A stretch of DNA of 64,000 nucleotides. It comes from a virus (lineage: Duplodnaviria; Heunggongvirae; Uroviricota; Caudoviricetes). The DNA lies in IMG/VR virus record IMGVR_UViG_3300045988_149282, positions 32,001 to 96,000 of that record. One strand, 5' to 3'. Below, piece after piece: positions 12,994-63,338 of this stretch. A program made the translations under genes and the position numbers. Within the stretch, counting starts at the first letter, position 1; every line of letters starts with the position of its first letter. The notes below the pieces were generated by a model, which was not told the DNA's origin, ran no database searches, and was given only the letters and a program-made list of their open reading frames with translations.

Positions 12994-13006
12994 AAACAAG
13001 TTGTTT
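12994..13006. promoter_or_regulatory. AAACAA-N-TTGTTT palindromic site upstream of parA-like gene
   Basis: Perfect 6+1+6 palindrome; same motif recurs upstream of at least five other genes. Confidence 0.45.
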
Positions 13007-13041
13007 CAGACGATAATTATATACGCAAAGGGAACTCTCCA

Positions 13042-13710
13042 ATGACCAAGATCTTTGTGGTTGGCGGCACAAAGGGCGGGCCTGGCAAATCCACCGTTGC
13101 CCAGCAAATTGCCGTTTGCCTGAAAGTCAAAAAGAAGAAGAAGGTTTATATTACCGATATAGATATTCAGCGCACGACAACGAGCTGGTGTGAAGACCGT
13201 CGACAGAACGAAGACCTTGAGCTGATTCCTTTTGCATACGTTCAGGATGACATCATTAAGCACCTAAAATCGCTTCAGGGTAGAGCTGAGTTTGTAGTGG
13301 TAGATGCTGGTGGCTTCGACTCCGAAATTCAGCGACAAGCGATGCTGATGGCTGACGTTATCATTATCCCGCTGCGTCCTAAGCGTCGTGATTTGAAATC
13401 TTTACGTGACATCGATCCTATTATCGACAATGTTCGCAATGTAAACGATAAAGTGAAGGTCCGCGCGGTCATGAACCAGTGCCCGGCTTTGCCATCACAA
13501 GTGTCTCGCATTCTGGCGGCTAAAGAGATTGTTGAGACGTTTGGCATCGAGTCTGCGCCAGTCAATCTATATAACCGCAACGTCTATGATGATGCGGAAG
13601 AGTCTGGTCGCTCTATCTTTGAAATGACCGGTAGCGAGCGCGACAAAAAGGCGGAAGCCGAGTTTGAAGAATTTGTAGATTATCTGTTGAGTCTGGAGGA
13701 AGAAGAATAA
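13042..13710 (+). CDS. parA: ParA/ParF-type partition ATPase
   Basis: Deviant Walker A GGTKGGPGKST at N-terminus; 222 aa, small ParA class without N-terminal helix-turn-helix. Confidence 0.85.
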   Translation: MTKIFVVGGTKGGPGKSTVAQQIAVCLKVKKKKKVYITDIDIQRTTTSWCEDRRQNEDLELIPFAYVQDDIIKHLKSLQGRAEFVVVDAGGFDSEIQRQAMLMADVIIIPLRPKRRDLKSLRDIDPIIDNVRNVNDKVKVRAVMNQCPALPSQVSRILAAKEIVETFGIESAPVNLYNRNVYDDAEESGRSIFEMTGSERDKKAEAEFEEFVDYLLSLEEEE

Positions 13711-14069
13711 TGTCCATGAAAATGGGTGACCTAGCAAAGCGCAAAGAGCCTGATGCACCGGCTAAGAACACAACTCCTTTGCGCCAACCAGTCAGACCAC
13801 AGGGACGCCCGACTCGTGGCAAAGAGAAAATTAAAAGCCGCACAATGTCACTGGAGGACGAATACTTCGAACTGCTGGAGATGATGAAGTTCATCCCTCG
13901 CTTCGAGAAGTTCACTCGTTCTGACGTGATTCGAGCAGCCATTTTCCATCTGGCAGAGAAGTCACCGCAGGAAATCGAGGACATCGTGAAATTGAATGAG
14001 GCGATCACCGCTGCCGATGTCACGATGCGTACCGATGAAATCAAACGAGAGTTGATGAAGAAAGGTTAA
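13710..14069 (+). CDS. Partition centromere-binding protein, ribbon-helix-helix (ParG-like)
   Basis: Start overlaps parA stop (TAATG); basic disordered N-terminus followed by a ribbon-helix-helix-like segment. Confidence 0.55.
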   Translation: MSMKMGDLAKRKEPDAPAKNTTPLRQPVRPQGRPTRGKEKIKSRTMSLEDEYFELLEMMKFIPRFEKFTRSDVIRAAIFHLAEKSPQEIEDIVKLNEAITAADVTMRTDEIKRELMKKG

Positions 14070-14074
14070 AAATC

Positions 14075-14105
14075 ATGCATTGGCGCGTACATTGCGCCAA
14101 TGCAT
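14075..14105. repeat. Perfect 12-bp inverted repeat ATGCATTGGCGC-N7-GCGCCAATGCAT between convergent genes
   Basis: Read directly; either a bidirectional terminator or a protein-binding site such as a partition centromere. Confidence 0.5.
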
Positions 14106-14121
14106 AACTACAGTGTCAGCT

Positions 14122-14889
14122 TTATGCCGCGCTAACACTATGTTCAGTCCTAACCACCCCAACCTTCACAAAAGGGCTACCGTAGCTTGGTGGCTTCTTG
14201 ATTAATTTGCCTACATACAGTTTTCTAATATGCTCATCGGCTATTCTGCCAACAAATTCATAACGTTTTGTGTCGGGGCCAAGAGCTATATCCCTTGTAA
14301 AGTACTGCTGAGAACCGGCTTTGACCCAGCATTCAATCTGATAAACTTCCATTATCAGCCCACCATATGTAGCGTAGGCATATTTGAGATTCTCGTCTCT
14401 TGGAACCTTTGCCCATACGCCACGCGTAGCTTCATATAATGCCAGAGCGGACATTCCTGACTTGTAGGTGCTGTTTAGCAGGAAGGCAAGACCGGCGTGC
14501 TCAGGAGCAATTTCAGTTTCCTCTTGCAGCACTAAGTGATGGTAGGCGTCCAGTGATATTCTGCCCATCATGGAACCACTTCCTCGTACCTTATTCGTAA
14601 GCTCTCCGACCCCCATAAGGTCGATGCATGTCGCCTCAACAAGTTTGGCTGTGGTTTCATCCATACCATGACGAAGTATATCTATGCCTAATTTTTTATT
14701 AGCCAAAAGTTCTTTGATCCGCATGGATTTGGGAGAGTCATCGGGATACTTGATGTGATCGAGACAACGAGTCGATTTGCCTTTTCCTATGTAAAACGGT
14801 CTTTTCATCTTGTCTTCTGTATCATAGAGACAGTAAACATAGTATTTAGCCTTATCCAATGATCTCGCGTATACCGATAAATCGTCCAT
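14122..14889 (-). CDS. GIY-YIG-like nuclease domain protein (homing-endonuclease-like or defence-type nuclease)
   Basis: N-terminal YVYCLYD...PFYIGKGKSTR matches the GIY-(10)-YIG-R signature; about 160 aa C-terminal domain of unknown type; antisense to flanking operons. Confidence 0.55.
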   Translation of the reverse strand: MDDLSVYARSLDKAKYYVYCLYDTEDKMKRPFYIGKGKSTRCLDHIKYPDDSPKSMRIKELLANKKLGIDILRHGMDETTAKLVEATCIDLMGVGELTNKVRGSGSMMGRISLDAYHHLVLQEETEIAPEHAGLAFLLNSTYKSGMSALALYEATRGVWAKVPRDENLKYAYATYGGLIMEVYQIECWVKAGSQQYFTRDIALGPDTKRYEFVGRIADEHIRKLYVGKLIKKPPSYGSPFVKVGVVRTEHSVSAA

Positions 14890-15000
14890 TATTGCATCTC
14901 TTTGCTACTGACTAATGCGTTCTATTTTACACATAAGTTTTTAATCAATTTAACAGGCTCAAAGTGTAGAGCTTCTGGGCGTCTAAGACGACAAGTTATG

Positions 15001-15055
15001 CCTGCTTCTGTATATATAAATAATAAGTAACTTATTAAATATATACGGAAGCAGG
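15001..15055. repeat. 55-bp composite palindromic element, copy 1 (CCTGCTTCTGTATATAT ... ATATATACGGAAGCAGG)
   Basis: About 17-bp arms around an AT-rich centre containing ATAAGTAACTTAT; a near-identical copy lies at about 60132-60188. Confidence 0.6.
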
Positions 15056-15171
15056 TCTTTTAAAAGACACCACCAGAACAACTCCCTTCCGTTTCCACTT
15101 CCAAAAACTGCCACCAGTCGCTATCATCCGCTCATTGTGATAAGTAAGTAACTACCTACCAGGTGAGCCAC

Positions 15172-15912
15172 ATGAGCCAAATCTTTTTCGATACCATCGA
15201 CAACGACCAGTACGACTTCATGACAGAGTGGAATACCGCTGTTATGGACAAGTGGGTCGCTGAAAACATTGGTTTGTCGCGCTGTAAAGACGAGGCTGAA
15301 CTCTTCGAGACGAAGTGGTTTGATTACCGCGACATGCATCCTCTCATGGCCACCTGTCTTTTTACGGAGGCATACAAACGTCAGTACTCAAATATCATGC
15401 TGACGCACGGTCGCGAACACTTTGAAACAGCTCCGTTCACCACCGGGTTAAAACGCCTGCCTTATCAGGAGTTGTCGACTGCCAATAAAACGTCGCTATG
15501 GAAAGCACGCCAGTTTGCGGATCGCTATTGCTGCTCATACGACTACTTTATCTCCACCGTTCTTTCCGCAGCTGCACGACGGCTGTGGGACAAGCTGCCG
15601 CGCCCACAGCATTTATGGCAGCCAGAACTGATTGAGATATTTGAAGAGAAATTAGCCAGACGCGCAACAACCCGTCTGGATGACTCTCTGGTTAGCTTTA
15701 AGCATATGGGAGACATGCAGTTCAACCCGATTCAGGAAAGCTATTTTGAGTGGATTCTGGAGCGTTTGCGCACCATCCCTCGCAGCAAGCGCATACGCGC
15801 AATTTTCTCCGCTATCTGGCTAATGGAAATCGTTCCAGAGCGCCTTATTTCCGCCCACTTTCCAGAAGAACTGGAAGAAGCACGGCGGTTTATTGATCCC
15901 CTATCTAATTAA
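15172..15912 (+). CDS. Hypothetical protein
   Basis: AGGTGA ribosome-binding site then ATG 15172 (ORF track opens at GTG 15163); no motif recognised; upstream of helicase. Confidence 0.55.
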   Translation: MSQIFFDTIDNDQYDFMTEWNTAVMDKWVAENIGLSRCKDEAELFETKWFDYRDMHPLMATCLFTEAYKRQYSNIMLTHGREHFETAPFTTGLKRLPYQELSTANKTSLWKARQFADRYCCSYDYFISTVLSAAARRLWDKLPRPQHLWQPELIEIFEEKLARRATTRLDDSLVSFKHMGDMQFNPIQESYFEWILERLRTIPRSKRIRAIFSAIWLMEIVPERLISAHFPEELEEARRFIDPLSN

Positions 15913-15923
15913 CTAATACTAGA

Positions 15924-15936
15924 AAACAATTTGTTT
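15924..15936. promoter_or_regulatory. AAACAA-T-TTGTTT palindromic site upstream of helicase gene
   Basis: Perfect palindrome 20 nt upstream of the conserved AAAGGAAAGCAC-ATG leader. Confidence 0.45.
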
Positions 15937-15955
15937 AAAAAACAAAGGAAAGCAC

Positions 15956-17325: not shown

Positions 17326-17443
17326 TGATTCATTGGTGAAACAACTTTTCTTTTGCCAAACCACAAAAGAAAAACACATGAACCTTTATATTATATCAAC
17401 ATTTAGGTTGGTCACAATATTGCCTGTTAAAAGTGGAATTATC

Positions 17444-18559
17444 GTGAGCGAGCTGAAAGAGCTAATTACCGAATTAGATTTTGAACAATGGTTGGATACT
17501 GAAGGTATCGTTTATCGACGTGGAGGCGTGAGTACTCGCGGTCGTGAAGTGAATATCAAGGAGTGTCCGGTATGCGGCAGCTCCAACTGGAAGGTATATT
17601 TCAATCTGACCAGTGGCGTCGGTAAATGCTTCGCTGGTGATCATCCCGAAGAGATTCAGTTCAATAAGCTGGTCTTCCTCAAGCACTACAGCGGCAAATC
17701 ACGACGACAGTTCGAGGAATATGTGCAGAACGCCCTTCTTTCCCAGGGGTGGGCACCAAAGAAAGAAGAGCTAGTGCTTGCAAGCACAGTCGAGTTAGAG
17801 GAGCCAGTTGCACTCCCTCGTCATTACGAGCTTCCTATAGATGGCCGTCTTCCAGACTATCTGGTTGAACGAAACATATCGCCTGAAATGGCAAAGTATT
17901 TTGACCTACGATACTGCGTCGAAGGCAAGCACGCCTATGTAGATCCGTATACAGATCAGGTTAAAGGACAGATATTCGATATGCGAATACTGATACCGGT
18001 TTACGATCTGGATGGGGTAATGAAGACATTTCAGGGACGAGACATTACCGGTACAGCAGAACGCCGCTACCTCTTTCCTATGCAACTTCCAGCTTCAGGT
18101 AAGTTTCTCTACAACGGCCATAATGCAGTCGGCAAACAGACTGTAGTTGTCTGTGAGGGGGCGTTCGATGTTATGGGGGTTAAACGAGCTATTTTTGACG
18201 AAGAAACATTACGTGATTACGTGGAACCAATAGGAACGTTCGGGATGCATCTATCTGGTAACACCACTCAGGATGCAGAAGATCAGTTAGGCGCGTTCCT
18301 GACGCTCAAGGCGCGTGGGTTACGTAATGTGATCATGATGTGGGATAGTGAAAAGCAAGCTATACGCAACACGATGGCCGCAGCCAGGCGACTGACCAGT
18401 ATTGGTCTTAATGTCAAAGTGGCGTGTTTGGGCGAGGAAGGACTCGACCCGGGCGATGCAACGCCAGAGCAAATCATCAAAGCCTATTATCGGGCAAAAC
18501 CGTATACCAAACAGTTGGAGTTGCAAAGCAAGGTTTTGGGCATTAAGGCTCTATCATAA
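17444..18559 (+). CDS. DNA primase (zinc-ribbon plus TOPRIM-like)
   Basis: CPVCGSS...KCFAGDH zinc-binding motif and VVVCEGAFDVMG acidic core. Start uncertain: GTG 17444 with GTGGA ribosome-binding site is preferred; ATG 17378 possible; ORF-track start 17306 lies inside the upstream hairpin. Confidence 0.7.
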   Translation: MSELKELITELDFEQWLDTEGIVYRRGGVSTRGREVNIKECPVCGSSNWKVYFNLTSGVGKCFAGDHPEEIQFNKLVFLKHYSGKSRRQFEEYVQNALLSQGWAPKKEELVLASTVELEEPVALPRHYELPIDGRLPDYLVERNISPEMAKYFDLRYCVEGKHAYVDPYTDQVKGQIFDMRILIPVYDLDGVMKTFQGRDITGTAERRYLFPMQLPASGKFLYNGHNAVGKQTVVVCEGAFDVMGVKRAIFDEETLRDYVEPIGTFGMHLSGNTTQDAEDQLGAFLTLKARGLRNVIMMWDSEKQAIRNTMAAARRLTSIGLNVKVACLGEEGLDPGDATPEQIIKAYYRAKPYTKQLELQSKVLGIKALS

Positions 18560-21274: not shown

Positions 21275-21450
21275 TGCTCGGCTGGATGATTGCATTTTTA
21301 GCAGTTGGTTTTTTCATCGGTATTGTGGTGATGTCCAGTTGCATTAATGACTACATTAAAAACGGTGTTATAGAAAGACGCGGTCGTATTTATCGCATTG
21401 TAGAAATAACCAACACCCTGAAGGAGATTAAGGATGATCGTATTAAGTAA
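21271..21450 (+). CDS. Small membrane protein (59 aa)
   Basis: ATGATG overlapping ligase stop; one hydrophobic helix; below the ORF-track length cutoff, so manually read. Confidence 0.35.
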   Translation: MMLGWMIAFLAVGFFIGIVVMSSCINDYIKNGVIERRGRIYRIVEITNTLKEIKDDRIK

Positions 21451-21649
21451 ACGGGAGAAGGAAACGCTTCATGAAATCAGTAAGTGGCCGGAGTTCCCTG
21501 AGTACTGGAAGCCTAAAACGCGAGCTAAGTTAGAGCGTTTAGGGTTGGTTGCAAACGTTTCTGAAACGAAGTGTTCGGCCAACTACCAGTTAACTGATAA
21601 AGGGAAAGTATTGCTACAGCAATTAGTAGAATCAGGAGTGTTAAAATGA
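21434..21649 (+). CDS. Hypothetical small protein (71 aa)
   Basis: Strong AAGGAG ribosome-binding site 7 nt upstream of ATG. Confidence 0.55.
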   Translation: MIVLSKREKETLHEISKWPEFPEYWKPKTRAKLERLGLVANVSETKCSANYQLTDKGKVLLQQLVESGVLK

Positions 21650-26514: not shown

Positions 26515-27618
26515 ATGAAAAATAGCTTTGACAGAGCACGCGCTGCGGAGAACACCTCAAAAGAGGCGATTGAGTATCTCGAAAGAGCATCTCAAATGCA
26601 GGCCGTTATGATCTCGCAGGTCAGCAATGACATGAGATTCTCGGACGCATTCATGTTATTCACTCGCTTATCTCTGCTGATAACAAGACGTCGGCCAGAG
26701 ATCGCTGTTCATTGTATTTTGATACATGTTTTGCCGCACATTGCCGATGTAAAAGTAAGTGACATTAATAGGTTCATGGTGAACCAACTGGTCAACCCAC
26801 TAATACTGGATGGCAAAATTGTTATGGGCCGCCGCGTTTTCTCTCTGATGAAGCAGTTCCTTAGCTGGTGCGCCTTCCAGGGGATGATAGACGTGTCACC
26901 GTTAAACGATATGTCACTAAACAAAGTTGCCGGTGGCGCAAAGCCTACACCTCGCGAGCGGAAGCTGACCGACGCAGAGGTATGGGTGTTCTGGAATATA
27001 TGGGACTACTTCAATGTGTGCGCTGGTACAAAATGGGCGGCCAGGCTGTGTCTTGTATCCGCAAGACGACCTGACGAAGTACTGCGGGCTAAAAAAAGTG
27101 AGTTCAATCTTAAGCGTGGGGTTTGGAATCAAGGCAAGAGGAACAAATCTGCCCGTGAGCATTCTCTGCCTTTAAGCTCATTAATGCGCACTTGTATTGA
27201 AGAGTTGTTCGAATATGGTAAAGACAGCCAGTGGCTCGTGCCTTCGAATAAAAAAATCGGGAAAGACCTTCCTATGTCTAAAGTGGCAATAGCCCAGGCA
27301 TTACGTCGTATTCTGGAACGACCAGAACTGATGGAGCTTGAGCCATTTACACCCCGAGATTTGCGCCGTACTGCGCGTAGTTACTTCCCAGCATTAGGCA
27401 TAAGCCAGGAGGTATCACGTAAAATCATGAACCACAGTCTTGAGGGGATAGATCGGGTCTACGACCGGCACGATTATATGGACGAGATGCGAGACGCCTT
27501 AGAAAGTTTCTCGACGTACATCGCATCAATCGTAGAGCAACCGGATTTAGACGAAATTGACCACAAATTTAAGGGAGATCGTCTATCAACAGAGCTTATT
27601 CGTGTAAATTTTTCATAG
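26515..27618 (+). CDS. Tyrosine site-specific recombinase (integrase/resolvase family)
   Basis: C-terminal catalytic signatures in order: ARRPDEVL (Arg), HSLP, RDLRRT, HSLEGIDRVYDRHDY (His and Tyr nucleophile). Start uncertain; weak ribosome-binding site at 26515. Confidence 0.75.
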   Translation: MKNSFDRARAAENTSKEAIEYLERASQMQAVMISQVSNDMRFSDAFMLFTRLSLLITRRRPEIAVHCILIHVLPHIADVKVSDINRFMVNQLVNPLILDGKIVMGRRVFSLMKQFLSWCAFQGMIDVSPLNDMSLNKVAGGAKPTPRERKLTDAEVWVFWNIWDYFNVCAGTKWAARLCLVSARRPDEVLRAKKSEFNLKRGVWNQGKRNKSAREHSLPLSSLMRTCIEELFEYGKDSQWLVPSNKKIGKDLPMSKVAIAQALRRILERPELMELEPFTPRDLRRTARSYFPALGISQEVSRKIMNHSLEGIDRVYDRHDYMDEMRDALESFSTYIASIVEQPDLDEIDHKFKGDRLSTELIRVNFS

Positions 27619-27999
27619 AGACTTTATGGCCTCAACAACCTTTTGTGATGCGCCTTTCTCTTTACCGAATCGCTCGTTATATGCAGCAAGAACCTGTTTT
27701 TCGTCCTCGTTAAGAGGAGCAGTGCCTTCTTTGTATAAAAATGCTGCGAGTTCGGGTTGGCGTTCTTCCAGCACCATCATCATAAGACGACTTGGCTCAA
27801 TGCCCAGTGCCAGCGCCAGCGGACGAACCTTATCGATAGGCAAAGGAATTTTGCCGCTTTTAATTAAAGAAAGGTTGTTGGCGTTTTTATACCCAATTGT
27901 TTTGGCTATCTGGGCCTGGCTCATAGGTGAGGATTCAATCAACCCTGCGATAAAAGCAGCATAGCGACTTTCTATAAATTCAATCTTGTTGTCAGACAT
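27613..27999 (-). CDS. XRE-family helix-turn-helix transcriptional regulator (repressor-like)
   Basis: Helix-turn-helix segment SQAQIAKTIGY...NLSLIKSG; 128 aa; convergent with recombinase, overlapping by 6 nt. Confidence 0.7.
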   Translation of the reverse strand: MSDNKIEFIESRYAAFIAGLIESSPMSQAQIAKTIGYKNANNLSLIKSGKIPLPIDKVRPLALALGIEPSRLMMMVLEERQPELAAFLYKEGTAPLNEDEKQVLAAYNERFGKEKGASQKVVEAIKSL

Positions 28000-28462: not shown

Positions 28463-28560
28463 CCCCTCTTCTCCCTGCGCGAATGGCTTAGTTCCCTGTT
28501 CGCGCAGTGCTACATTAAACACACTAGTAAATAATTTGTTTTCATAACAAAGGATTAGCC

Positions 28561-32000: not shown

Positions 32001-32002
32001 TC

Positions 32003-32206
32003 GTGCGTAAAGGATGTTTCGGCTCTCTTATCGCTGCTTCTGAAACTGGTAAGGCTTGTCTGGTGTGTCCAGACAAGCCCGATTGTCACCAATCAGCAAA
32101 AGAAGTTGCGATTTCGATGCATGGGAAGTTCGTAGGCTTCCCCAATGACAAAATCAAAAAAACCAGAAAGGTAAAAACACATGAAGGCACTGATGGTTCG
32201 AACTGA
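32003..32206 (+). CDS. Hypothetical small Cys-rich protein (67 aa)
   Basis: GTG start right after upstream stop; CLVCPDKPDCH cluster; overlaps the polymerase start; low support. Confidence 0.3.
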   Translation: MRKGCFGSLIAASETGKACLVCPDKPDCHQSAKEVAISMHGKFVGFPNDKIKKTRKVKTHEGTDGSN

Positions 32207-38407: not shown

Positions 38408-38673
38408 TGCTTAAATCGATTATCAATGGCGCTACAACCACCCCTGCCCAACTGGCAAAAGAGATTGTCTTTTATCACGGTGAGTACGCTGTCATCGCAC
38501 TGCCGTCAATTCTAGGCGCTGCCGGAATGAAAGCGACAGATCGCGAGTTTGGATTAGTCAGCGAGCAGGTCGTAAAAATCCTCGCTCGTGTATCCAGACT
38601 CCTTAACCACGATGCGATTATATTCGACGAATCCGCCGCTTTAAAACGAATCAACGAAACAAAAGGAGCCTGA
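38407..38673 (+). CDS. Hypothetical small protein (88 aa)
   Basis: ATG 38407 overlapping the nuclease stop. Confidence 0.45.
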   Translation: MLKSIINGATTTPAQLAKEIVFYHGEYAVIALPSILGAAGMKATDREFGLVSEQVVKILARVSRLLNHDAIIFDESAALKRINETKGA

Positions 38674-38675
38674 TC

Positions 38676-39749
38676 ATGGCAAAAGGAAAATCCGCACTGG
38701 CACTTGCTCTGAAAAAGAAAATCGGTAGCAACGACGAAATTCAGAAAGTAACTCATTGGATTGATACAGGCTTTCCACCGTTAAACAAAGCTATTTCTGG
38801 TCGTTACGATGGCGGCTTCCCATGTGGTCGTATCGTCGAAGTATTCGGTCCTCCAAGTGCAGGGAAAACGTTCCTTGCAACAGCAGCGATGATCTCCGCT
38901 CAAAAACAAGATGGTCTGGCGGTATTCCTCGATCATGAAAACAGTTTTGACGTTGGCCTGGCTGTAGCCAATGGCCTGAACGCAGATGAGGATGACGGTC
39001 AGTGGGTATACAAGCAGCCTGATACCTTCGAAGACTCTGTAGAGTTGATCGGCACAATTCTTAAATTGGTACGTGATGAAGAGCTTATTCCTGAATCAGC
39101 ACCTATCTGTATCGTGGCTGACTCACTTGCGTCTATGGTTCCGAACTCCAAAGCCGAGAAGTTCGAAAAGATGGCTGAAGGCACTGCCAAAGACAAAGAT
39201 CAGCTAAACATGAACGACAATACGGCACTGGCTCGTGCGACAAGTGCGAACTTCCCTACTCTGGCTTTGTGGGCACGCAAATACAACGCCTGCATCATCT
39301 TCTTGAATCAGGTTCGCACAAAAATCGGTGTAATGTTTGGCGACCCTACTACGTCTCCAGGTGGAGATTCACCGAAGTTCTACGCTTCTGTACGTATCCG
39401 TCTTGGTGCATCGGTGATGAAGGATGGTAAAGAGAAGATCGGCCAGGACGTAGGCGCAGAATGCATCAAAAACAAAGTTGCACCACCGTATGGCAAATGC
39501 ACCTGGAAATTCTACTTCGATCCTACTCGTGGCCTCGACGTTATCGAATCGCTCGTCGAGTACATGCTGGAAGAAGGATACCTGCCAAAGAACGCCAGCG
39601 GGCGAGTTGAAATTGGTGACAAGAAATACACCAAATCGCAGATCGTCGAGATGTATCGGGAGAAGCCACTGGCTGAAATCATTGCGGCTTTGCAGGCAAT
39701 CGACGACCGAAGAGCAAAAGACAACCCAACCGAGTCAGTAGAAGAGTAA
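38676..39749 (+). CDS. RecA/UvsX-like recombinase
   Basis: Walker A GPPSAGKTFLA, Walker B-like ICIVADSLAS; AAAGGAG ribosome-binding site. Confidence 0.7.
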   Translation: MAKGKSALALALKKKIGSNDEIQKVTHWIDTGFPPLNKAISGRYDGGFPCGRIVEVFGPPSAGKTFLATAAMISAQKQDGLAVFLDHENSFDVGLAVANGLNADEDDGQWVYKQPDTFEDSVELIGTILKLVRDEELIPESAPICIVADSLASMVPNSKAEKFEKMAEGTAKDKDQLNMNDNTALARATSANFPTLALWARKYNACIIFLNQVRTKIGVMFGDPTTSPGGDSPKFYASVRIRLGASVMKDGKEKIGQDVGAECIKNKVAPPYGKCTWKFYFDPTRGLDVIESLVEYMLEEGYLPKNASGRVEIGDKKYTKSQIVEMYREKPLAEIIAALQAIDDRRAKDNPTESVEE

Positions 39750-40938: not shown

Positions 40939-40951
40939 AAACAATTTGTTT
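40939..40951. promoter_or_regulatory. AAACAA-T-TTGTTT palindromic site
   Basis: Perfect palindrome 17 nt upstream of ATG 40968. Confidence 0.45.
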
Positions 40952-41393: not shown

Positions 41394-41448
41394 TCGCCTA
41401 TTCATAACTAACAAAATAAGTAAACACTAACCACAAAAGGAAAAACAC

Positions 41449-41724
41449 ATGAGAGTTTTAGTTCGAATCGTTACCAGCACTGTCTATGACGTGTTTCCGC
41501 TTTTTATGGTCAAAGTCGATGGCCTTAACGATGAAGAAACTGACGCGCTGATCCAGCGTACTCTTGTTGAATATACAGGTCATGACGCTGATTCAGTGAT
41601 GGTTGATGATGATGGTGTTTGTTGGCATAACGGCAACTGTTGGTACGTAGAAGAGACTCAACAAATCAGTAATGAAGATGCTGAACATCTTGAGCGTATT
41701 TTAAGCATCAGCACTTTTGAGTGA
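41449..41724 (+). CDS. Hypothetical small acidic protein (91 aa)
   Basis: Conserved leader AAAGGAAAAACAC-ATG. Confidence 0.5.
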   Translation: MRVLVRIVTSTVYDVFPLFMVKVDGLNDEETDALIQRTLVEYTGHDADSVMVDDDGVCWHNGNCWYVEETQQISNEDAEHLERILSISTFE

Positions 41725-41943: not shown

Positions 41944-42275
41944 AGACCATCCCATTCGCGCTGTTGTTTCTTTCTTCGATCGTTGTGGCCGACACCACTG
42001 TTTATCAGTGTGAAATGTCTGTAGCCGACGTTAAGAATGGCGCTCTTACCGACGTCATAAAAGCACCATATGGAGCGATGGTCGTAGACAGCGGCGACCA
42101 GTTCTATGTTGTGCGTGACGATCGAGTGTTGTCATCCCCATATCTCACAAATCGTAATGGCAAATTAACCGGCGTCGGAGAAGACCACTTCGTATACAAC
42201 AAATACAAGGGCTTCTATGGCGTTCACGCTTCTCAGCAAAGCTACCTTTTCGATGACTGCAAGGAGGTTGGGTAA
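41940..42275 (+). CDS. Secreted/periplasmic protein with signal peptide (111 aa)
   Basis: N-terminal MKTIPFALLFLSSIVVA signal-like segment; GAGGTGG ribosome-binding site. Confidence 0.5.
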   Translation: MKTIPFALLFLSSIVVADTTVYQCEMSVADVKNGALTDVIKAPYGAMVVDSGDQFYVVRDDRVLSSPYLTNRNGKLTGVGEDHFVYNKYKGFYGVHASQQSYLFDDCKEVG

Positions 42276-42487
42276 TGGCATTAACACTGGCAGGTCTGGA
42301 AATCGAGAAAACAAGCGGCTACTGGCGTGCTAAGGGTTTCAAGCAGCATGGCATTCTTGAGCGTCTGGAACGTGAAGATGGGTATATCGTCCACCAGCGG
42401 CGTGAATGGCGTATGTACGATCCAGAAACAGGAAAACTGACTACAAAAGCCGGAACACTTTGGGGTCTGTTAAAGAAAATACACTAA
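42275..42487 (+). CDS. Hypothetical small protein (70 aa)
   Basis: Start overlaps upstream stop (TAATG). Confidence 0.45.
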   Translation: MALTLAGLEIEKTSGYWRAKGFKQHGILERLEREDGYIVHQRREWRMYDPETGKLTTKAGTLWGLLKKIH

Positions 42488-42534: not shown

Positions 42535-43067
42535 ACCGCTGACAGCATACACAATCAACTACCGCTGATAGCATATCGAGAGTCTATCTCACCGCTCACA
42601 GCATACTTTACTCGATTTTTTACCGCTGACAGCATACTTAAGAAATTGCATGAATAATGTGTCCCGGTATGGGTATAACCAGAACAAAATTACCGCTGGC
42701 AGCATACGAATGTCTGACATATACCATTAATTACCGCTGATAGCATATCCAAACAAAAATTCCTCAATAAAACACCGCTGACAGCATACGTTCTATCAGG
42801 GAGTAGCAGGCAATAAATGCCTTTCACTACAAGCAATCAGCGCAATAGCAATAGAATGTTAGTGAGCGCAAACCTATATGGAATGCACTCTTCGAGGTTA
42901 GTAACCACTGGGGAGGTATGACAGAGCATTGAGTGGTGATAGATGATTTACCGCTCACAGCATACGTTCATCTCACTATACCGCTGGTAGCATATCTTTA
43001 ACCGTTCACAGCATACTTTTCAGAAAAATAGCCGCTGATAGCATACATTTCACCGCTGACAGCATAT
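42535..43067. repeat. Iteron array, about 12 copies of ACCGCTGACAGCATAC (control locus downstream of repA)
   Basis: Copies start at about 42535, 42561, 42591, 42622, 42692, 42733, 42774, 42950, 42980, 43001, 43030, 43052, with point variants (GATAGCATAT, CTCACAGC, CTGGCAGC). Confidence 0.8.
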
Positions 43068-44161
43068 CAAAGCAGTTTGAGACTATTGGAAAGGATCTCA
43101 ATCATCTTGATATTTTCAGGCGTCAAATTCTGCGAAAGTTCGGTTATCTTGTTGATAATGTTCTGTTTGGCATCAATTTCCCCAGCTTTCTCATCTGGTT
43201 TTTTGGGTTCGATGTCTTCAGGTTTTGGCGGTGCGACTTTGAGTTTTGGATTGCGGCTGTGAATCTGGATATAGATCGACCGCCCACGCTTAATCTCGCT
43301 GTATTCGAGATAGCCCAAATCTTGGAGAGCTTTTAAGCCGTTACGTATAGTCTGATTCTGCGAGCTGACATTCCTGCTACTCAAATTGAGTCGCGCACGC
43401 AATCGAGCAAGCGATACCGGCGCAGGCTTGGTAGGAAGACTTTCGATGAAGGTGTACAGAGCCTGTGCTGTTTCTTTGCGTGGTAGCTTATTGATAACCT
43501 TTAACTGCAAAAGAACCTTATGGTCAAAGCGATATAGTTCGGCCAGCTTCGGTTCTGCATAGAACACCACCGTATCTTTCTGCTCGTTGTAGTCCACGCT
43601 ATTGATGAGGTGCACCATCAGAAGCGAGATCTTGTTAGAGCCGTCGACGTTCTTTTCTTCATACGTTCTCTGGAAAGACAGAGTTGTACGCATGATCTTC
43701 AAAAGACTGTTTGTAAGCCGGTCGCGGAGTGTTTTGCGGATCTGTGACGATGGATAGCCACAAAACTTAGCAAATTTCGTGATGCTTAACTCGACACGAC
43801 CGTTAGGTTCGCCGTATTCTGCCAGCGAACGCACAACGCCCACCCACGTTTTGAAATCATGATCCATGTCGAGACGAGGACCGGTTATCTTGATATCGGA
43901 ATAGCCTTCAGAACGGGCTACTTCGAGCTGGACAAGCTCCTTTGAAGCATCAATCTCATTTGGCTTGTTACGTTTACTGTATTTTGTTCCCTTAAGCGTG
44001 GGGACGAACAACCCCAGTCGCATCAACGCAATTGGTTGGACTGTATTGTTGCTATTAGGGACAAGTTCCCCTGTGTACAATTCAAGGGAACCTTCTTCAA
44101 AGTTGTCGATGTTATCTTCTACTTCTTTGTTATTTTTACCTTTTTTATTTTTTGTGGACAT
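43067..44161 (-). CDS. repA: Plasmid-type replication initiator RepA (iteron-binding)
   Basis: Antisense ORF flanked on both sides by the same iteron; start set at M41 of the ORF-track product (AAAGGTG ribosome-binding site); basic N-terminus and winged-helix-like segments. Family assignment rests on context. Confidence 0.65.
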   Translation of the reverse strand: MSTKNKKGKNNKEVEDNIDNFEEGSLELYTGELVPNSNNTVQPIALMRLGLFVPTLKGTKYSKRNKPNEIDASKELVQLEVARSEGYSDIKITGPRLDMDHDFKTWVGVVRSLAEYGEPNGRVELSITKFAKFCGYPSSQIRKTLRDRLTNSLLKIMRTTLSFQRTYEEKNVDGSNKISLLMVHLINSVDYNEQKDTVVFYAEPKLAELYRFDHKVLLQLKVINKLPRKETAQALYTFIESLPTKPAPVSLARLRARLNLSSRNVSSQNQTIRNGLKALQDLGYLEYSEIKRGRSIYIQIHSRNPKLKVAPPKPEDIEPKKPDEKAGEIDAKQNIINKITELSQNLTPENIKMIEILSNSLKLL

Positions 44162-44181
44162 GTGGACACCTTTGTCATTCA

Positions 44182-44283
44182 ACCGCTGACAGCATACTTG
44201 ATTTGCCGCTGACAGAATACCAAAAACAGTTGGCAGCATACGGTGAACCGCTGACAGACTATCAATTACCGCTGACAGCATAC
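44182..44283. repeat. Origin iterons (5 copies at about 21-bp phasing) upstream of repA
   Basis: Copies start at about 44182, 44205, 44231 (partial), 44247, 44268; spacing near two helical turns. Confidence 0.75.
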
Positions 44284-52358: not shown

Positions 52359-52394
52359 TTGTTTAAACAAATAAGATAACAACTTGTTTAAACA
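52359..52394. promoter_or_regulatory. Tandem palindromic sites TTGTTTAAACAA and AACAACTTGTTTAAACA upstream of nrdB
   Basis: Two overlapping copies of the AAACAA/TTGTTT palindrome family. Confidence 0.5.
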
Positions 52395-52419
52395 CATCAA
52401 AAAGCAAAAGGAAAAACAC

Positions 52420-53562
52420 ATGTCATATTCAACGTTCCGTTTGGGTGCTAATGATGCAACCAAAGAGCCTATGTTCCTCGGACAATCTGTCAACGTGGCA
52501 CGTTACGATCAGCAAAAATACCGTGATTTTGAAAAGTTGATTGAACGTCAATTGTCTTTCTTCTGGCGGCCGGAAGAAGTTGATATTTCGAGCGATCGTA
52601 TCGACTTCAACACGAAGCTGCGGGACCACGAACGTCACATTTTTCTGAGCAATCTCCGTTATCAAACGTTACTCGATTCAGTTCAGGGACGTAGCCCAAA
52701 TGCAACGCTGCTGCCGCTTATCTCTATTCCTGAACTGGAAACGTGGGTTGAAACATGGTCTTTCTCTGAGACTATCCATAGCCGCAGCTACACCCACATT
52801 ATTCGTGGCATGGTGGACGATCCGAGCATTGTTTTTGACGGTATTGTTACGGATGAAGAAATCATCAACCGAGCGATCAGTATCTCTGCTGAATATGACA
52901 GGCTTTATGGGATGACCTGCGAGCGCCAGTCGTTAGGTGAGAAAGAGTTTGAACGTCTGTACGTAAATGAATATGGCTGGGAGCCATACCCTTTGCATCG
53001 TCAGCTTTTCCGCACGTTGGTGTCCATTAATGCGCTTGAGGCGATCCGTTTCTACGTAAGTTTTGCATGTACGTTTGCCTTTGGTGAACGGAAGTTGCTT
53101 GAGGGTAACACCAAAATTATGCGCTTTATTGCCCGTGATGAAGCTCTGCATTGCGAAGGAACTGAACGCATGATCCGCTTCATGCGTACCGGTCGCGAAG
53201 GTTTATTGTGGAAAGAGATTGCTGCTGATGAAGAAAACGTCATTTACGACACCATGAAATCAGTCGCCGAACAAGAAATGAACTGGGCAGACTATCTCTT
53301 CAAAGACGGTTCGATGATTGGTTTAAACGCGGATATTCTCAAAACCTATGTAAAATACCGCACCAATCTGGCTATGAATCGTCTTGGCCTGAAGGCTTTA
53401 TTTCCAGAAGTTACCACTGATCCGCTGGTCTGGATGAACAAGTGGTTGTTAACCGACACACTGCAAATTGCACCACAAGAGGCAGAGCAAAGCACATATC
53501 TGGTAGGTCAGATAGATTCTACCGTGGATAAGGCTTCTCTAAGCCAGTTTGCAGACCTGTAA
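52420..53562 (+). CDS. nrdB: Ribonucleoside-diphosphate reductase, small subunit
   Basis: Conserved leader AAAGGAAAAACAC-ATG; di-iron ligand context (E..H motifs) and tyrosyl-radical region; ORF-track start 52384 is an upstream in-frame TTG. Confidence 0.85.
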
Positions 53563-58522: not shown

Positions 58523-59332
58523 ATGAGTTCGGTTGAAAATGTAATGACAAATGATGATCTGGACGAGCTGACAGCCATGTTGCAATCACTTGATGAACCA
58601 GTAAAAAAAGCTGCACAGGTTGAAAATACTGATGATATTGACGATCTGTTGCTCGGCCTAGATGCTGGCGTAGCCATGAGTTCTGATGATGTTGCCGAAG
58701 AACTGTTCAATGAAGAAAAAGCAGGTGATTTCAGCTCTGCTTTAAATGAGTTGGAGTTAGCGCATGAGCCTATAAACGTAATTAACGCTGAAAGTGTTGA
58801 AGCTGCCGAAAACGAGCCAGAACAATTGGGATTTATTGAAGTTGAAGAGTGTGTTGAGGTTAATGATGAATTAAAAGTTCAACAGTCAAATGATAGCAAT
58901 ACAAATAAAAAAGCTCGTACTGCAAGAGGTCCTCGTTTTACTTTAAGTGATAAAGATGATTCGTTTTTCAATAAAGCGGGCTTAGAAAAAGATATTTTCT
59001 TAGACGCTTACGATAACGCGCCTGTCAAAGCAAAGGATAAGATATTAAACCTTCTTAATTGGTTTAGCGGAGGTCCAGATATTAGTGTTTACACGGTAAT
59101 TTCCATGAGACACCTTCTCACAGAAAAGAAGGCAACAAGTAATAGTATTAAGATTGCTTTAATGAGCAATCCAGAAAAACCGTATCCGCTTAATACTGCG
59201 TCAACTCAGGCTGGGCAAATGATGGCTGTATTTCCAGCGACAGGAATTGCCGTTAGAGACGGTGGAAATCTAACATTGAACGAAGAATCACCGATCGTTA
59301 AGAAGTTTGTCGCGGAGTACACTATTGGATGA
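58523..59332 (+). CDS. Hypothetical protein with strongly acidic N-terminal half and basic C-terminal half; candidate DNA-mimic/anti-restriction protein
   Basis: AAGGAG ribosome-binding site; first ~120 aa rich in D/E; directly upstream of the Dam-like methyltransferase. Confidence 0.55.
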   Translation: MSSVENVMTNDDLDELTAMLQSLDEPVKKAAQVENTDDIDDLLLGLDAGVAMSSDDVAEELFNEEKAGDFSSALNELELAHEPINVINAESVEAAENEPEQLGFIEVEECVEVNDELKVQQSNDSNTNKKARTARGPRFTLSDKDDSFFNKAGLEKDIFLDAYDNAPVKAKDKILNLLNWFSGGPDISVYTVISMRHLLTEKKATSNSIKIALMSNPEKPYPLNTASTQAGQMMAVFPATGIAVRDGGNLTLNEESPIVKKFVAEYTIG

Positions 59333-60109: not shown

Positions 60110-60131
60110 TTTGTTCTGGTGTCTGTAATTA

Positions 60132-60525: not shown

Positions 60526-60539
60526 TAGATAAGTACAAA

Positions 60540-61045: not shown

Positions 61046-61070
61046 ACACGCACGCGTGTGCGCACGCGCG
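61046..61070. repeat. 25-nt perfect alternating purine-pyrimidine tract (ACACGCACGCGTGTGCGCACGCGCG)
   Basis: Read directly; contains the CACGCGTG palindrome; GC-rich in an otherwise AT-rich promoter region before the RNase H gene. Confidence 0.7.
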
Positions 61071-61108
61071 AGGAAAAAATCGGCGCGGCGCTTGATTCAG
61101 GAGTTTAT

Positions 61109-61699
61109 ATGACGACGAAGACACCAGCCCGATCGCAAGCAAAAACTCGCAAAAAAGCCAAAAACAAAAATTCTCCCCGCACCAATCCCACAACGCCTGT
61201 CGTAGAGTTCAATCCCCAGCTCAAAACCGTGAAAATCTTTAGTGATGGCTCTTGCCTTAAAAATCCGGGTGGCCCGGGCGGTTACGGTATCGTTCTCCAG
61301 TATCGTGGTGAGGAACGCGAATTCTCAGATGGTTTTCATAGCACCACCAATAACCGCATGGAGATGATGGGGGCACTTATCGGGCTGGAGCGTTTGAAAT
61401 ATCCATGCAACGTTATTTTGCACTCTGATAGCCAGTATCTGAAAAACGGCATGACACAGTGGATGAAATGGTGGAAACGCAATGGATGGATGACTTCTGA
61501 CAAAAAACCGGTAAAGAATGTTGATCTGTGGAAGCGTCTGGATGAGGCCGCAAGTCGACATAATGTTCGCTGGAAGTGGGTTAAAGGTCACGCCGGGCAT
61601 CGTGAAAATGAAATATGTGATCGACTCGCGAAGATCGCAGCTTTTTCAGCAGCAGATATGCCTCACAAGAAAGATATTGGTTTTGTTTATAACAAATAG
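61109..61699 (+). CDS. rnhA: Ribonuclease HI with basic N-terminal extension
   Basis: CAGGAG ribosome-binding site then ATG 61109; motifs [39 protein letters not shown]. Confidence 0.8.
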
Positions 61700-61718
61700 T
61701 AAGTAAGTGTTTACCTAT
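61696..61718. promoter_or_regulatory. ATAGTAAGTAAGTGTTTACCTAT palindromic motif (class-2 family)
   Basis: Immediately after the RNase H stop. Confidence 0.4.
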
Positions 61719-61847
61719 CATTTCAAATCATGTATCTTATCGGCGTCAGGATGACAATGTGTTGGTAAGACACAGTTCCAGGATGGAACGAGAAAGGCGG
61801 CTGGCAATCGCCAGCCGCAACTCTTTCTGACACTGGATGGAGTCCAC

Positions 61848-62342
61848 ATGGCACGTCAAACCTATTTCACTTCTGTAACTAAACGTCCTCGTTCTTTACG
61901 TCAAATTTTGGCCGAATTATTTAGCGGTCGTGTTATGTCACGTCTTGATGAACTAGAGACTACCGTTCGGTTGCTGAATGAACGTTTAGATAATCAAGCG
62001 TCAGTTGTTGCGAACGTGGGGGCGATTGTTGCCTCTGGTTCTTCACGCGAAGCGAAAAATGCACGGCCTTTAGTGAAGGAGAAAAACAACAAGGACAGTT
62101 CGAATGGAAAATTTTCAAAGAAAGAGGCTGAAACCAATGGCCTACGTTCTCATTATAGTTTCACTGGCGACGGTAGCCGTTCCAGCCGGTCAGAGCCTTT
62201 TGATGCCGGATTCATCCATCACCACACCTTCGTCGACGACAATTACCACCACTCCAGTGGAGCGTCCTGTCACTCTGGATGGGATGGCGGTGGATGCGAT
62301 ACCTCAACTTCATCCAGTTACTCAGGATCATGCTGTGACTAA
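61848..62342 (+). CDS. Hypothetical protein; 3' part may be a non-genic frame extension
   Basis: TGGAG ribosome-binding site then ATG 61848; C-terminal third is low-complexity and overlaps a membrane-protein frame. Confidence 0.4.
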   Translation: MARQTYFTSVTKRPRSLRQILAELFSGRVMSRLDELETTVRLLNERLDNQASVVANVGAIVASGSSREAKNARPLVKEKNNKDSSNGKFSKKEAETNGLRSHYSFTGDGSRSSRSEPFDAGFIHHHTFVDDNYHHSSGASCHSGWDGGGCDTSTSSSYSGSCCD

Positions 62343-62355
62343 GGCGGTTGTATGA
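62137..62355 (+). CDS. Small membrane protein (about 72 aa)
   Basis: AGAGG ribosome-binding site then ATG 62137; N-terminal transmembrane helix; alternative frame to the 3' part of the previous ORF. Confidence 0.4.
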   Translation: MAYVLIIVSLATVAVPAGQSLLMPDSSITTPSSTTITTTPVERPVTLDGMAVDAIPQLHPVTQDHAVTKAVV

Positions 62356-62540
62356 ACTGGTTTTCAAATCACTTTGGAAAAATTTGGCTGGCAATTCTTG
62401 CCCTCATGGCCGCCGGTTGGGTATCGAACATTATAAAACTTGTTTGCTCTGGCGATCTCCAGTTTCAGGCTGGCATGACCTTGGCTCGTGTAGTTGGGAT
62501 TTTTATTTTTCCAGTCGGTTCGGTACTTGGTTATTTCTGA
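62352..62540 (+). CDS. Small membrane protein (62 aa, two transmembrane helices)
   Basis: ATG overlaps upstream stop; two hydrophobic helices. Confidence 0.5.
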   Translation: MNWFSNHFGKIWLAILALMAAGWVSNIIKLVCSGDLQFQAGMTLARVVGIFIFPVGSVLGYF

Positions 62541-62596
62541 CGGTTGTTAGTGCATATGCATTGACCGTCTTTGCGTAAGCAATTTATTTAACTAGA

Positions 62597-62609
62597 AAAC
62601 AACTTGTTT
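62597..62609. promoter_or_regulatory. AAACAA-C-TTGTTT palindromic site
   Basis: 25 nt upstream of the TerB-like gene start. Confidence 0.45.
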
Positions 62610-62633
62610 TGACAAATAACAAAAGGAAAACAC

Positions 62634-63059
62634 ATGTTAGGTTTCTTCAAAAAGAAAACTCGTAAAGCAGTTATCGAAGTCAAAAAAATGGAGAACCGTG
62701 ATGCGGTTGAGGCCACCGTGTGGGGCGCGTACATGATCTCCTATGCCGACGGCACATGTGACGCAAAAGAAATTGCCATTCTTGAGAAGACAATTGCAGC
62801 TCTGCCTGCGTTTTCTCCGTTTGCTGGTGAAATTGCCCAAATGAGCGCCAATATCCGTGCTCGTTACGAAGCGTCCCCTCGTTCTGCTAATGCACAGGCT
62901 ATTCGTGAGCTGTCTGATATTGCGGGTACTCCAGAGGCGGTCGATGTTCTGTGTCTGTGCCTTGATATTGCCGATCAGGATGGCATTGGTGAACAAGAAG
63001 AGCAGGCACTGAAAAAGATCGCCCAGGCGCTTCAGTTGTCACTGGATGCTTATCTCTAA
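62634..63059 (+). CDS. TerB-like protein (tellurite-resistance TerB fold family)
   Basis: Two A-x-A-D-G/Q-D-G ... E ... L repeats (MISYADGTCDAKEIAILE and LDIADQDGIGEQEEQALKKI); 141 aa; conserved leader. Confidence 0.5.
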   Translation: MLGFFKKKTRKAVIEVKKMENRDAVEATVWGAYMISYADGTCDAKEIAILEKTIAALPAFSPFAGEIAQMSANIRARYEASPRSANAQAIRELSDIAGTPEAVDVLCLCLDIADQDGIGEQEEQALKKIAQALQLSLDAYL

Positions 63060-63217
63060 TGCTTGAGAGATTCCGGCTTGTGACCGTCATTGCTCTTCTG
63101 GTGATGGCGGTGTTGGTGGATTTTACGGGAAAGATGATGTCTGTCATTTCTGATGGCCTCCTCATTGGTTTGGCGATCTACTTCGCTTATCCGCTAGTCC
63201 GTAAAGCAACGTGTTAA
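63059..63217 (+). CDS. Small membrane protein (52 aa)
   Basis: Manually read; ATG overlaps the TerB-like stop; two hydrophobic helices; terminator follows. Confidence 0.35.
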   Translation: MLERFRLVTVIALLVMAVLVDFTGKMMSVISDGLLIGLAIYFAYPLVRKATC

Positions 63218-63220
63218 TGA

Positions 63221-63245
63221 CAAGGGCCAAATGGCCCTTGTGTTT
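63221..63245 (+). terminator. Rho-independent terminator
   Basis: CAAGGGCC-aaat-GGCCCTTG followed by TGTTTCGTT. Confidence 0.7.
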
Positions 63246-63325
63246 CGTTGACCGAAATAGAGAGTTTGCACCTTTACGTTTAGCTTGCTCCCCTTTTATG
63301 CCACATCACAATAAAGCCAATAAGA

Positions 63326-63338
63326 AAACAACTTGTTT
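63326..63338. promoter_or_regulatory. AAACAA-C-TTGTTT palindromic site
   Basis: 19 nt upstream of ATG 63357. Confidence 0.45.

Follow-up and report, generated by a model that had tools for sequence, protein, structure and literature searches.

What reads the 13-bp palindrome AAACAA-N-TTGTTT (AAACAANTTGTTT) that recurs ahead of operons in a phage-plasmid of enterobacteria, and what does it do there? The question arises from a 64,000-nucleotide stretch of viral DNA (positions 32,001 to 96,000 of IMG/VR record IMGVR_UViG_3300045988_149282), called the window below. A preliminary description of this DNA had placed the palindrome upstream of at least six operons and had proposed that it serves a second dimeric regulator, encoded by phage or host, with a gene set different from that of another ('class-2') palindrome, TAGGTAAGTnnTTACCTA. 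The two gene sets are indeed distinct. The association with operons also stands, but the regulon is larger. It comprises about 20 promoters per genome, is conserved in enterobacterial SSU5-type phage-plasmids, and is separate from the regulon of the CI-like repressor. We put the probability at about 0.5 that the palindrome is a DNA operator for an element-encoded repressor that acts at or next to the transcription start.

By BLAST, the window belongs to the SSU5 group of phage-plasmids. Identity is 99% with Escherichia phage CMS-2020a and 98% with phage Cyrano, which is the pLF82 plasmid of E. coli LF82, and the window shares ~77–82% and ~76–80% identity with the more distant Salmonella phage SSU5 and Klebsiella pJN2-26, respectively. 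The annotation of Cyrano provides a gene map with tail genes, lysis functions, parA, helicase and primase, ligase, integrase and a helix-turn-helix repressor, and further with CobT/CobS-like genes, dnaE, recombination genes, an iteron-type repA, nrdAB, thyX and others. Nearly all genes of the element lie on the + strand. SSU5/pHCM2-type phage-plasmids occur commonly in clinical isolates of E. coli, Salmonella, Klebsiella and Enterobacter, and in a protein search the helicase turned up in 930 plasmid records. Carriage of resistance genes by such elements is on record in published work. Full-text searches of a literature collection retrieved nothing on the AAACAA-N-TTGTTT palindrome or on gene regulation of SSU5-type elements.

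The exact pattern occurs five times in the window, at 12994, 15924, 40939, 62597 and 63326, and never in 100 dinucleotide-preserving shuffles (mean 0.00, maximum 0). With up to two mismatches allowed there are 13 sites against 5.9 expected, among which two one-mismatch sites, at 28529 and 52377, are clearly of the same kind. A chance or composition artefact is ruled out by the shuffles together with third-order Markov simulations. The strong sites are all intergenic, lie on the coding (+) side, and are followed by a good ribosome-binding site (RBS) before the start codon. The sites and the predicted parA promoter are as follows, with palindromes given without a strand.

12950–12978, + strand: predicted parA promoter TTTACA-N17-TAGGCT, read from the sequence, 15 nt upstream of the palindrome.
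12994–13006: perfect palindrome AAACAAGTTGTTT, 35 nt before the parA ATG (13042), at about +9 to +22 of the predicted sigma-70 promoter.
15924–15936: perfect palindrome AAACAATTTGTTT, 19 nt before the ATG (15956) of the DnaB-like helicase gene.
17339–17351: doubtful degenerate site AAACAACTTTTCT with two mismatches, before the primase gene, at chance level when taken alone.
28529–28541: one-mismatch site AAATAATTTGTTT, 19 nt before the ATG (28561) of a 702-aa CobT-like gene.
40939–40951: perfect palindrome AAACAATTTGTTT, 16 nt before the ATG (40968) of a DUF7238 gene.
52377–52389: one-mismatch site TAACAACTTGTTT, 30 nt before the nrdB ATG (52420).
62597–62609: perfect palindrome AAACAACTTGTTT, 24 nt before the ATG (62634) of a TerB/TciA-like gene.
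63326–63338: perfect palindrome AAACAACTTGTTT, 18 nt before the ATG (63357) of a 189-aa gene.

All five perfect positions had been reported exactly in the preliminary description, and the measured distances of 16–35 nt from the end of the palindrome to the ATG agree with the 17–40 bp that it gave. Its tandem perfect palindromes ahead of nrdB proved to be a single imperfect palindrome preceded by an everted TTGTTTAAACAA at 52359–52370, and the site at 28529 was absent from its list. The conserved block exceeds the 13 bp, extending over 18–19 bp, and is not fully symmetric, with the form aAGA-AAACAAnTTGTTT-Aa.

The preliminary description had made its proposal depend on conservation of position among relatives, and SSU5, pJN2-26, K. 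oxytoca pCAV1015-111 and a Nissabacter-like contig do retain sites at the orthologous places. At parA, the helicase, CobT-like, nrdB, TerB-like and terS genes, orthologous positions persist although the flanks have changed. Cyrano, SSU5 and pJN2-26 carry the parA site unchanged, and a single mismatch distinguishes it in pCAV1015-111; the predicted promoter block ahead of it is also conserved in relatives, and a strict consensus scan did not call it. Despite diverged flanks, the helicase site has orthologues in SSU5 (one mismatch), pJN2-26 and pCAV1015-111. The imperfect site before the CobT-like gene is perfect in SSU5 (42729) and pJN2-26 (91040), and the T at position 1 of the nrdB site is kept in Cyrano and SSU5. 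The site at 40939 is located directly 3′ of a terminator-like hairpin, at the head of an operon that begins with the DUF7238 gene and ends with a Cra-like gene (42275–42487), and its orthologues lie at 58595 in Cyrano, 56848 in SSU5 and 39442 in pCAV1015-111. The site of the TerB/TciA-like gene, which has a degenerate copy AAGCAATTTATTT 20 bp upstream (62577–62589), corresponds to pJN2-26 17795 and pCAV1015-111 61915. The site at 63326 follows a −10-like CACAAT by 13 nt and corresponds to SSU5 81745, pJN2-26 18510 and pCAV1015-111 63401.

The enrichment holds genome-wide in these relatives. Sites with no more than one mismatch number 18 in Cyrano, 20 in SSU5 (first 100 kb), 17 in pJN2-26 and 20 in pCAV1015-111, against 0.2–0.7 expected per genome in third-order Markov simulations, and the four genomes carry 9–12 perfect sites per ~105 kb against 0.00–0.03 expected. 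Beyond the genes of the window, sites precede a cluster of small early genes (Cyrano 93–98.5 kb), the late terS operon and, in pCAV1015-111 only, dnaE. A Nissabacter-like contig of 110 kb also retains sites. In contrast, Moellerella pW18-2-b and Acinetobacter p5759_1 share the genome plan and have no perfect site each, with near-matches at chance level. Helicase identity runs from 93% down to 68% among the motif-bearing genomes (68% in pCAV1015-111) and is 63% and 37% in the Moellerella and Acinetobacter elements, respectively. No lineage with an altered palindrome was found; the motif is unchanged in the elements of Enterobacteriaceae and the Nissabacter-like contig and missing from those of Moellerella and Acinetobacter. 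In a viral collection, the exact 16-mer occurs in 119 stretches, and loci with multiple sites are almost all SSU5-like. The exceptions are three unrelated loci (L010, L036 and L094) with 3–4 near-matches.

Alignment of about 50 sites yielded a shared −10-like box, from which promoters and transcription starts were predicted. Forward sites, which carry AGA on their left, follow such a box, often of the form TGn-GATAAT, and a conserved CCA lies at the expected transcription start of their promoters. Among the 28 forward sites with a good box, 24 begin 12–14 nt after it and 16 at exactly 13, so that by the predicted starts the dyad covers about +8 to +20 with its centre near +14. Reverse sites, flanks included, read as the reverse complement of forward ones (TT-AAACAAnTTGTTT-TCT versus AGA-AAACAAnTTGTTT-AA), and each of the 14 that have a good −10 box precedes it by exactly 19 nt. 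They span about −44 to −32, centred near −38, in promoters that have no −35 hexamer. Scoring of the flanks in four genomes gave 47 forward, 23 reverse and 5 ambiguous sites. Where a promoter is flanked by both types, their centres are 51–52 bp apart, as in the pairs at Cyrano 93114/93165, SSU5 88319/88370 and pCAV1015-111 66900/66951 (51 bp). Across genomes, the gap between palindrome and ATG varies from 11 to 43 nt. This variation, set against the fixed spacing to the −10 box, indicates that the site is tied to the box and not to the start codon. Such locking points to repression at or near the transcription start. Of the two centres, +14 is a position for a repressor, whereas −38 could suit a repressor or an activator.

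RNA levels in the LF82 lysogen are consistent with this reading. Against a Cyrano background median of 9.8, the transcriptome gives 7.1 for terS, 7.8 for the CobT-like gene, 5.7 for CYRAN_58, 12.9 for nrdB, 7.0 for the TciA/TerB-like gene, 7.1 for CYRAN_87, 6.3 for CYRAN_93, 7.5 for CYRAN_101, 12.8 for CYRAN_105, 12.2 for CYRAN_106, 5.7 for CYRAN_108, 6.7 for CYRAN_110, 25.5 for CYRAN_111 and 21 for the helicase (PMC9928086, S1 table). The first genes after the sites are thus near background, apart from the parA operon, which is the expressed exception at 50–89 (same table). Silence of predicted extended −10 promoters in the lysogen fits repression, and expression of the parA operon is expected if the operon is autoregulated by the product of its second gene.

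The motif itself looks more like a site in double-stranded DNA than one in RNA. Its central base is free, and mismatches are tolerated at the near-mirror positions 1/13, 4/10 and 6/8, whereas positions 2/12 never vary and 5/9 almost never do. As RNA, the dyad folds with 0 to −2.3 kcal/mol, no better than shuffled sequences, and an RNA hairpin or intrinsic terminator was rejected because the palindrome stem has no stable fold. The free centre, the mirror pattern of mismatches and the promoter-locked spacing in two orientations favour, as far as sequence can indicate, a symmetric protein on double-stranded DNA near RNA polymerase. The dyad and its mismatch pattern also suit the second dimeric regulator proposed earlier, although the dimeric protein itself is something that we infer.

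Under the operator reading, one element-encoded repressor would keep replication, early and late genes quiet during plasmid life, with a regulon that includes parA, the DnaB-like helicase, the CobT-like gene, nrdB, the TerB-like gene, small early genes, terS and, in one relative, dnaE. A dimer bound at about +8 to +20 would block open-complex formation or promoter escape, and one bound to a reverse site at about −44 to −32 would take the place of the −35 element. The centre spacing of 51–52 bp corresponds to about five helical turns, so that cooperative binding would be possible.

Which protein might be the binder? We infer an order of candidates in which a ParG/omega-like protein encoded after parA comes first, a small winged-helix-like protein second and another element-encoded protein third. 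The two named candidates are as follows.

13710–14069, + strand: candidate 1, a 119-aa protein whose gene starts at the parA stop, with a ribbon-helix-helix/ParG-like sequence pattern.
21434–21649, + strand: candidate 2, a 71-aa winged-helix-like protein, homologue of CYRAN_37, proposed from its sequence pattern and phyletic distribution.

The ParA upstream of candidate 1 (222 aa, 13042–13710) matches the NCBIfam model ParA_partition with an E-value of 2e-33, below the model's own score cut-off, and a gene for a small Walker-type ParA followed by a small-protein gene in one operon is the layout of type Ib partition systems. In candidate 1, a conserved N-terminal MGDLAKR peptide is accompanied by a basic arm and a ParG-like strand-helix-helix pattern. 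Between Cyrano and pCAV1015-111 the whole protein is only 51% identical, yet its arm, strand and helix B do not vary. It is expressed in the Cyrano lysogen, at a level of 89 (PMC9928086, S1 table). In the Moellerella copy, which has diverged, the putative DNA-binding segments differ. Upstream of parA in that element (pW18-2-b 11105–11225) a degenerate AAGAAAACAATATATTT precedes the ATG by about 100 nt and two direct AAATAACAAGGC repeats lie by the RBS; they may be the operator of the diverged ParG-like protein. Outside SSU5-like plasmids, the only homologue of candidate 1 is a truncated remnant beside an IS5 element. Candidate 2 is present in all four motif-bearing genomes and in neither of the two motif-less ones. 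It gives weak Pfam matches to HTH_45 and EarA, and its low-confidence structural model (predicted local distance difference test score, pLDDT, of 64) has the order helix-helix-strand-strand-helix. The same distribution, in all four motif-bearing and neither motif-less genome, is shown by CYRAN_37, 38, 61, 62 (the Cra-like gene, 42275–42487), 101, 106, 111 and 114.

Other regulators of the element are less plausible binders. The helix-turn-helix repressor encoded at 27613–27999 (− strand) is unlikely, as SSU5 lacks it and keeps 20 sites. It is further disfavoured by its presence in the motif-less Moellerella and Acinetobacter elements and by the class-2 palindrome that stands upstream of its gene instead. 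A ParB-like pair and the winged-helix protein CYRAN_123 are less likely as well, because they occur in motif-less relatives and are at background in the lysogen.

A further protein, the FljA-like product of the CYRAN_114 family, must be considered separately. Its gene lies outside the window (Cyrano 100780–101301, minus strand) and is present in Cyrano, SSU5, pJN2-26, pCAV1015-111 and the Nissabacter-like contig and in neither motif-less relative. The protein matches Pfam Flag1_repress with an E-value of 1e-80, and the nearest chromosomal flagellin repressors are about 40% identical. A confident AlphaFold model (pLDDT 84) shows two tandem modules of a helix and five strands and no helix-turn-helix. 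Its best matches in the PDB are Hfq proteins (probability 1.00, template modelling score 0.7–0.85 on the target, E ~3e-4), and the predicted tandem Hfq/Sm arrangement would be an RNA-binding fold. Transcription of the gene in the lysogen is about twice background (PMC9928086, S1 table). In the Salmonella/Citrobacter fliC leader, CAAGUUGU is located 27 nt before the AUG and equals the centre of the parA-type site, and the leader differs from the full 13-mer at 4 of 12 positions. E. coli-type flagellin leaders are without CAAGUUGU, and CAAnUUG occurs in only 2–3 of about 100 other flagellin leaders.

Several observations weigh against an element-encoded DNA-binding repressor, or against the binders favoured here. 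About two-thirds of the sites lie in 5′ leaders near the RBS, where a mechanism at the RNA level would also fit, and a strict sigma-70 consensus scan finds no promoter upstream of the sites in the window. Several promoters have the left half of the motif with its flank, AGAAAACAA, by itself at +5 to +13, so that the promoter or leader may account for part of the conservation. The fold of candidate 1 is indicated by a weak NCBIfam match to aCcr1, a ribbon-helix-helix family (E 2e-4, below cut-off), and searches of Pfam, PHROGs and PDB by sequence and profile, and hhalign comparisons with ParG and omega, gave nothing significant for this protein. It is also present in the Moellerella element, which has no regulon, and candidate 2 is at background in the lysogen (PMC9928086, S1 table). 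The perfect trackers of the motif are the winged-helix-like, Cra-like and FljA-like proteins, not candidate 1. The strongest alternative is that the FljA-like protein binds AGAAAACAAnUUGUUUAA in the 5′ leader (an example of a motif-bearing leader is AACAAGAAAACAAGUUGUUUAAAGGA) and blocks translation or destabilises the mRNA, in the way that Salmonella FljA acts on fliC mRNA. The element's homologue tracks the motif, is transcribed in the lysogen and has a modelled Hfq-type fold, AGAAAACAAnUUGUUUAA lies 2–22 nt before the Shine-Dalgarno sequence in about two-thirds of cases, and CAAGUUGU is shared with the fliC leader. However, recognition of single-stranded RNA does not explain a dyad symmetry of 12 positions whose hairpin is unstable, nor a spacing that is constant to the −10 box and variable to the Shine-Dalgarno sequence and AUG, and about one-third of the sites (the reverse ones, 19 nt upstream of the −10 box) are outside the leader of the next gene. 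The resemblance to fliC extends over 7–8 bases in one lineage (p ~0.004–0.02) and was sought after the hypothesis had been formed, and about ten other genes have the same presence/absence pattern as the FljA-like gene. On balance, we regard the RNA mechanism as a tentative alternative that is probably incorrect. Slightly more doubtful still is its extension, in which the tandem-Hfq protein silences about 20 transcripts post-transcriptionally, Salmonella FljA is a domesticated copy of it, and CAAGUUGU in fliC mimics the phage operator.

Three other explanations appear more remote. A host transcription factor of Enterobacteriaceae and close relatives could bind the operator and couple the promoters to host physiology. 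The motif is invariant across elements of Escherichia, Salmonella, Klebsiella and Nissabacter-like hosts, in which most element proteins have diverged to 40–70% identity, and it is absent from the elements of Acinetobacter and of Moellerella (Morganellaceae). But multi-site loci in the viral collection are almost all SSU5-like, several element genes share the exact distribution of the motif, and we know of no E. coli regulator with this palindrome as its consensus, all of which makes a host factor improbable. We assign a similarly low likelihood to the idea that the palindrome is part of the promoter or leader, whether as a class II site (−38) for an activator or RNA-polymerase-modifying factor, as initially transcribed sequence or as a loading site for a terS antiterminator. 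The empty sigma-70 scan, the solitary copies of AGAAAACAA, and the sharing of cTTTnnnGCCtTTT among promoters without a recognisable −35 hexamer would all suit it, as would the order of promoter, palindrome, hairpin with T run and gene in the terS leader of relatives, which recalls lambda PR′-tR′. It does not accommodate a centre at +14, which is not an activator position, or the many TGn-GATAAT extended −10 boxes, which would be expected to need no activator, and the downstream genes are silent in the lysogen while the full dyad is conserved, not just its promoter-proximal half. Least likely is that the sites are mainly parS-like centromeres of the type Ib ParA system with little part in regulation. 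One site is at the parA promoter and a putative centromere-binding protein is encoded in the parA operon, and in pSM19035 the omega-binding promoter sites do serve as centromeres. A centromere, however, does not need exact spacing to the −10 box at about 40 sites across genomes, and single dyads in place of arrays are unusual for type Ib; no repeat array is found near parA in 12700–15300, and only a single dyad stands upstream of the gene. The reading as a DNA operator of an element-encoded repressor remains the one that we prefer.

Further features of the regulon and the element deserve description in their own right. In the relatives, the late leader is arranged as a −10-like box, one or two AAACAA palindromes, a GC-rich hairpin with a T run, and the terS start (Cyrano 30–135; SSU5 30–135; pJN2-26 38560–38683; pCAV1015-111 83360–83470). 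By analogy with lambda PR′-tR′, this arrangement suggests that the late genes may need antitermination or control of read-through. A conserved block that contains no convincing gene (Cyrano 94396–94660, SSU5 90530–90800, pJN2-26 ~25869, pCAV1015-111 71035–71568) carries one or two AAACAA palindromes and GCTCCCGTTGCGTTA, and could be a small RNA gene or a second origin-like region. The annotated starts of CYRAN_105 and CYRAN_110 (Cyrano 95805 and 97903) fall inside or upstream of the palindrome and are probably mis-annotated, with better RBS-backed starts 12–20 nt downstream of it. Many genes share a near-identical translation start context, AAAGGAAAAACACATG, for example at 17366–17385, 41433–41451, 52404–52422, 62618–62636 and 63341–63359. 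Its 10-mer AAAACACATG occurs eight times against 0.13 expected, independent of the class of the preceding palindrome.

The class-2 palindrome TAGGTAAGTnnTTACCTA occurs at about 14 places between 9962 and 61717 of the window, against 0.2 expected, with examples at 15141, 22097, 25983, 28029, 36271, 39791, 45251, 49935, 59486 and 61700. A copy, GGTAAGTnCTTACC, lies 30 bp upstream of the repressor gene 27613–27999 (− strand), which suggests from sequence that the class-2 palindrome is the operator of that repressor. Its Acinetobacter counterpart, AGTAAGCGCTTACT, overlaps TATAAT boxes, and in Cyrano the class-2 motif is also found inside the structural-gene region. Sixteen direct repeats of CCGCTGACAGCATA (0.4 expected) at 42536–43066 and 44183–44282 flank and partly overlap repA (43067–44281, minus strand), and resemble a classic iteron-type region for replication origin and copy control. 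Positions 15001–15055 form a near-perfect palindrome of about 55 bp, CCTGCTTCTGTATATATAAATAATAAGTAACTTATTAAATATATACGGAAGCAGG. Cyrano and pJN2-26 carry a close copy about 50–70 bp ahead of the late terS promoter. Roles as a centromere, in packaging or in regulation are all conceivable for this palindrome. Acinetobacter p5759_1 encodes a sigma-70-family sigma factor (17690–18355) between a MoxR/CobS-like gene and dnaE, and at the corresponding position the enterobacterial elements have only a 67-aa open reading frame (window 32003–32206).

The regulon described here is the second one of these elements, and it spans partition, replication, nucleotide metabolism, and early and late genes. The palindrome offers a concrete way to search for the protein that governs the choice of plasmid maintenance or lytic growth. 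If the binder were the FljA-like Hfq protein, it would reveal a new phage-encoded form of post-transcriptional immunity and the origin of a classic Salmonella regulator. If it were the protein of the partition operon, segregation would be linked to global silencing in the manner of omega or KorB, here in a phage.

In kind, the system resembles the dispersed regulons known from other plasmids and phages, such as those of omega, KorB/KorA and P1 C1. Two narrower systems share individual features with it. In the FljA/fliC system, a member of whose family is encoded by the element, the target likewise lies between the promoter and the Shine-Dalgarno sequence, and the fliC leader contains CAAGUUGU. 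FljA, however, has one known target and acts on RNA, whereas the palindrome has DNA-type symmetry, is promoter-locked and occurs about 20 times; the link between the two is a correlation. The ParG system of TP228 also has a small ParA followed by a small protein with a flexible N-terminal tail, an operator between the par promoter and parA, and a strand-helix-helix pattern (here IKSRTMSLEDE... versus KRVNVNFDEE... in ParG). It differs in its arrays of ACTC tetramer boxes and in controlling its own operon only, and the hhalign match between the two proteins is not significant.

The broader regulons are closer in scope. P1 is likewise a plasmid prophage, in which many lytic and replication functions, including a DnaB-type helicase, are each served by an operator of their own for the C1 repressor at scattered promoters, with no single central switch. 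The operators of P1 are asymmetric 17-mers bound by monomeric C1, in contrast to the dyad here, and the C1/CI analogue of this element appears to be the separate repressor 27613–27999 with its class-2 palindrome. In RK2, KorB and KorA use palindromic operators of 12–13 bp that recur about 7–12 times round the replicon at defined promoter positions (KorB class I near −39/−40), and KorB, which is a partition protein too, controls replication, partition and other operons. KorB is a large helix-turn-helix protein of the ParB family that also acts at a distance, its operators and those of KorA are unrelated to the present palindrome (TTTAGCSGCTAAA and GTTTAGCTAAAC), and the ParB-like genes of this element occur in motif-less relatives too. 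The omega protein of pSM19035 differs in binding arrays of 7–10 heptads at three promoters, as opposed to single dyads at about 20 promoters that include those of lytic genes, and it shares no sequence similarity with the 119-aa protein, whose binding is putative. Nevertheless, omega too is a small protein encoded together with a small ParA-type ATPase, and its short repeats, direct or inverted, are distributed over several promoter regions. The centres of the AAACAA and TTGTTT half-sites are 7 bp apart, comparable to the omega heptads, and a regulator of this type would couple partition to the repression of replication and maintenance genes.

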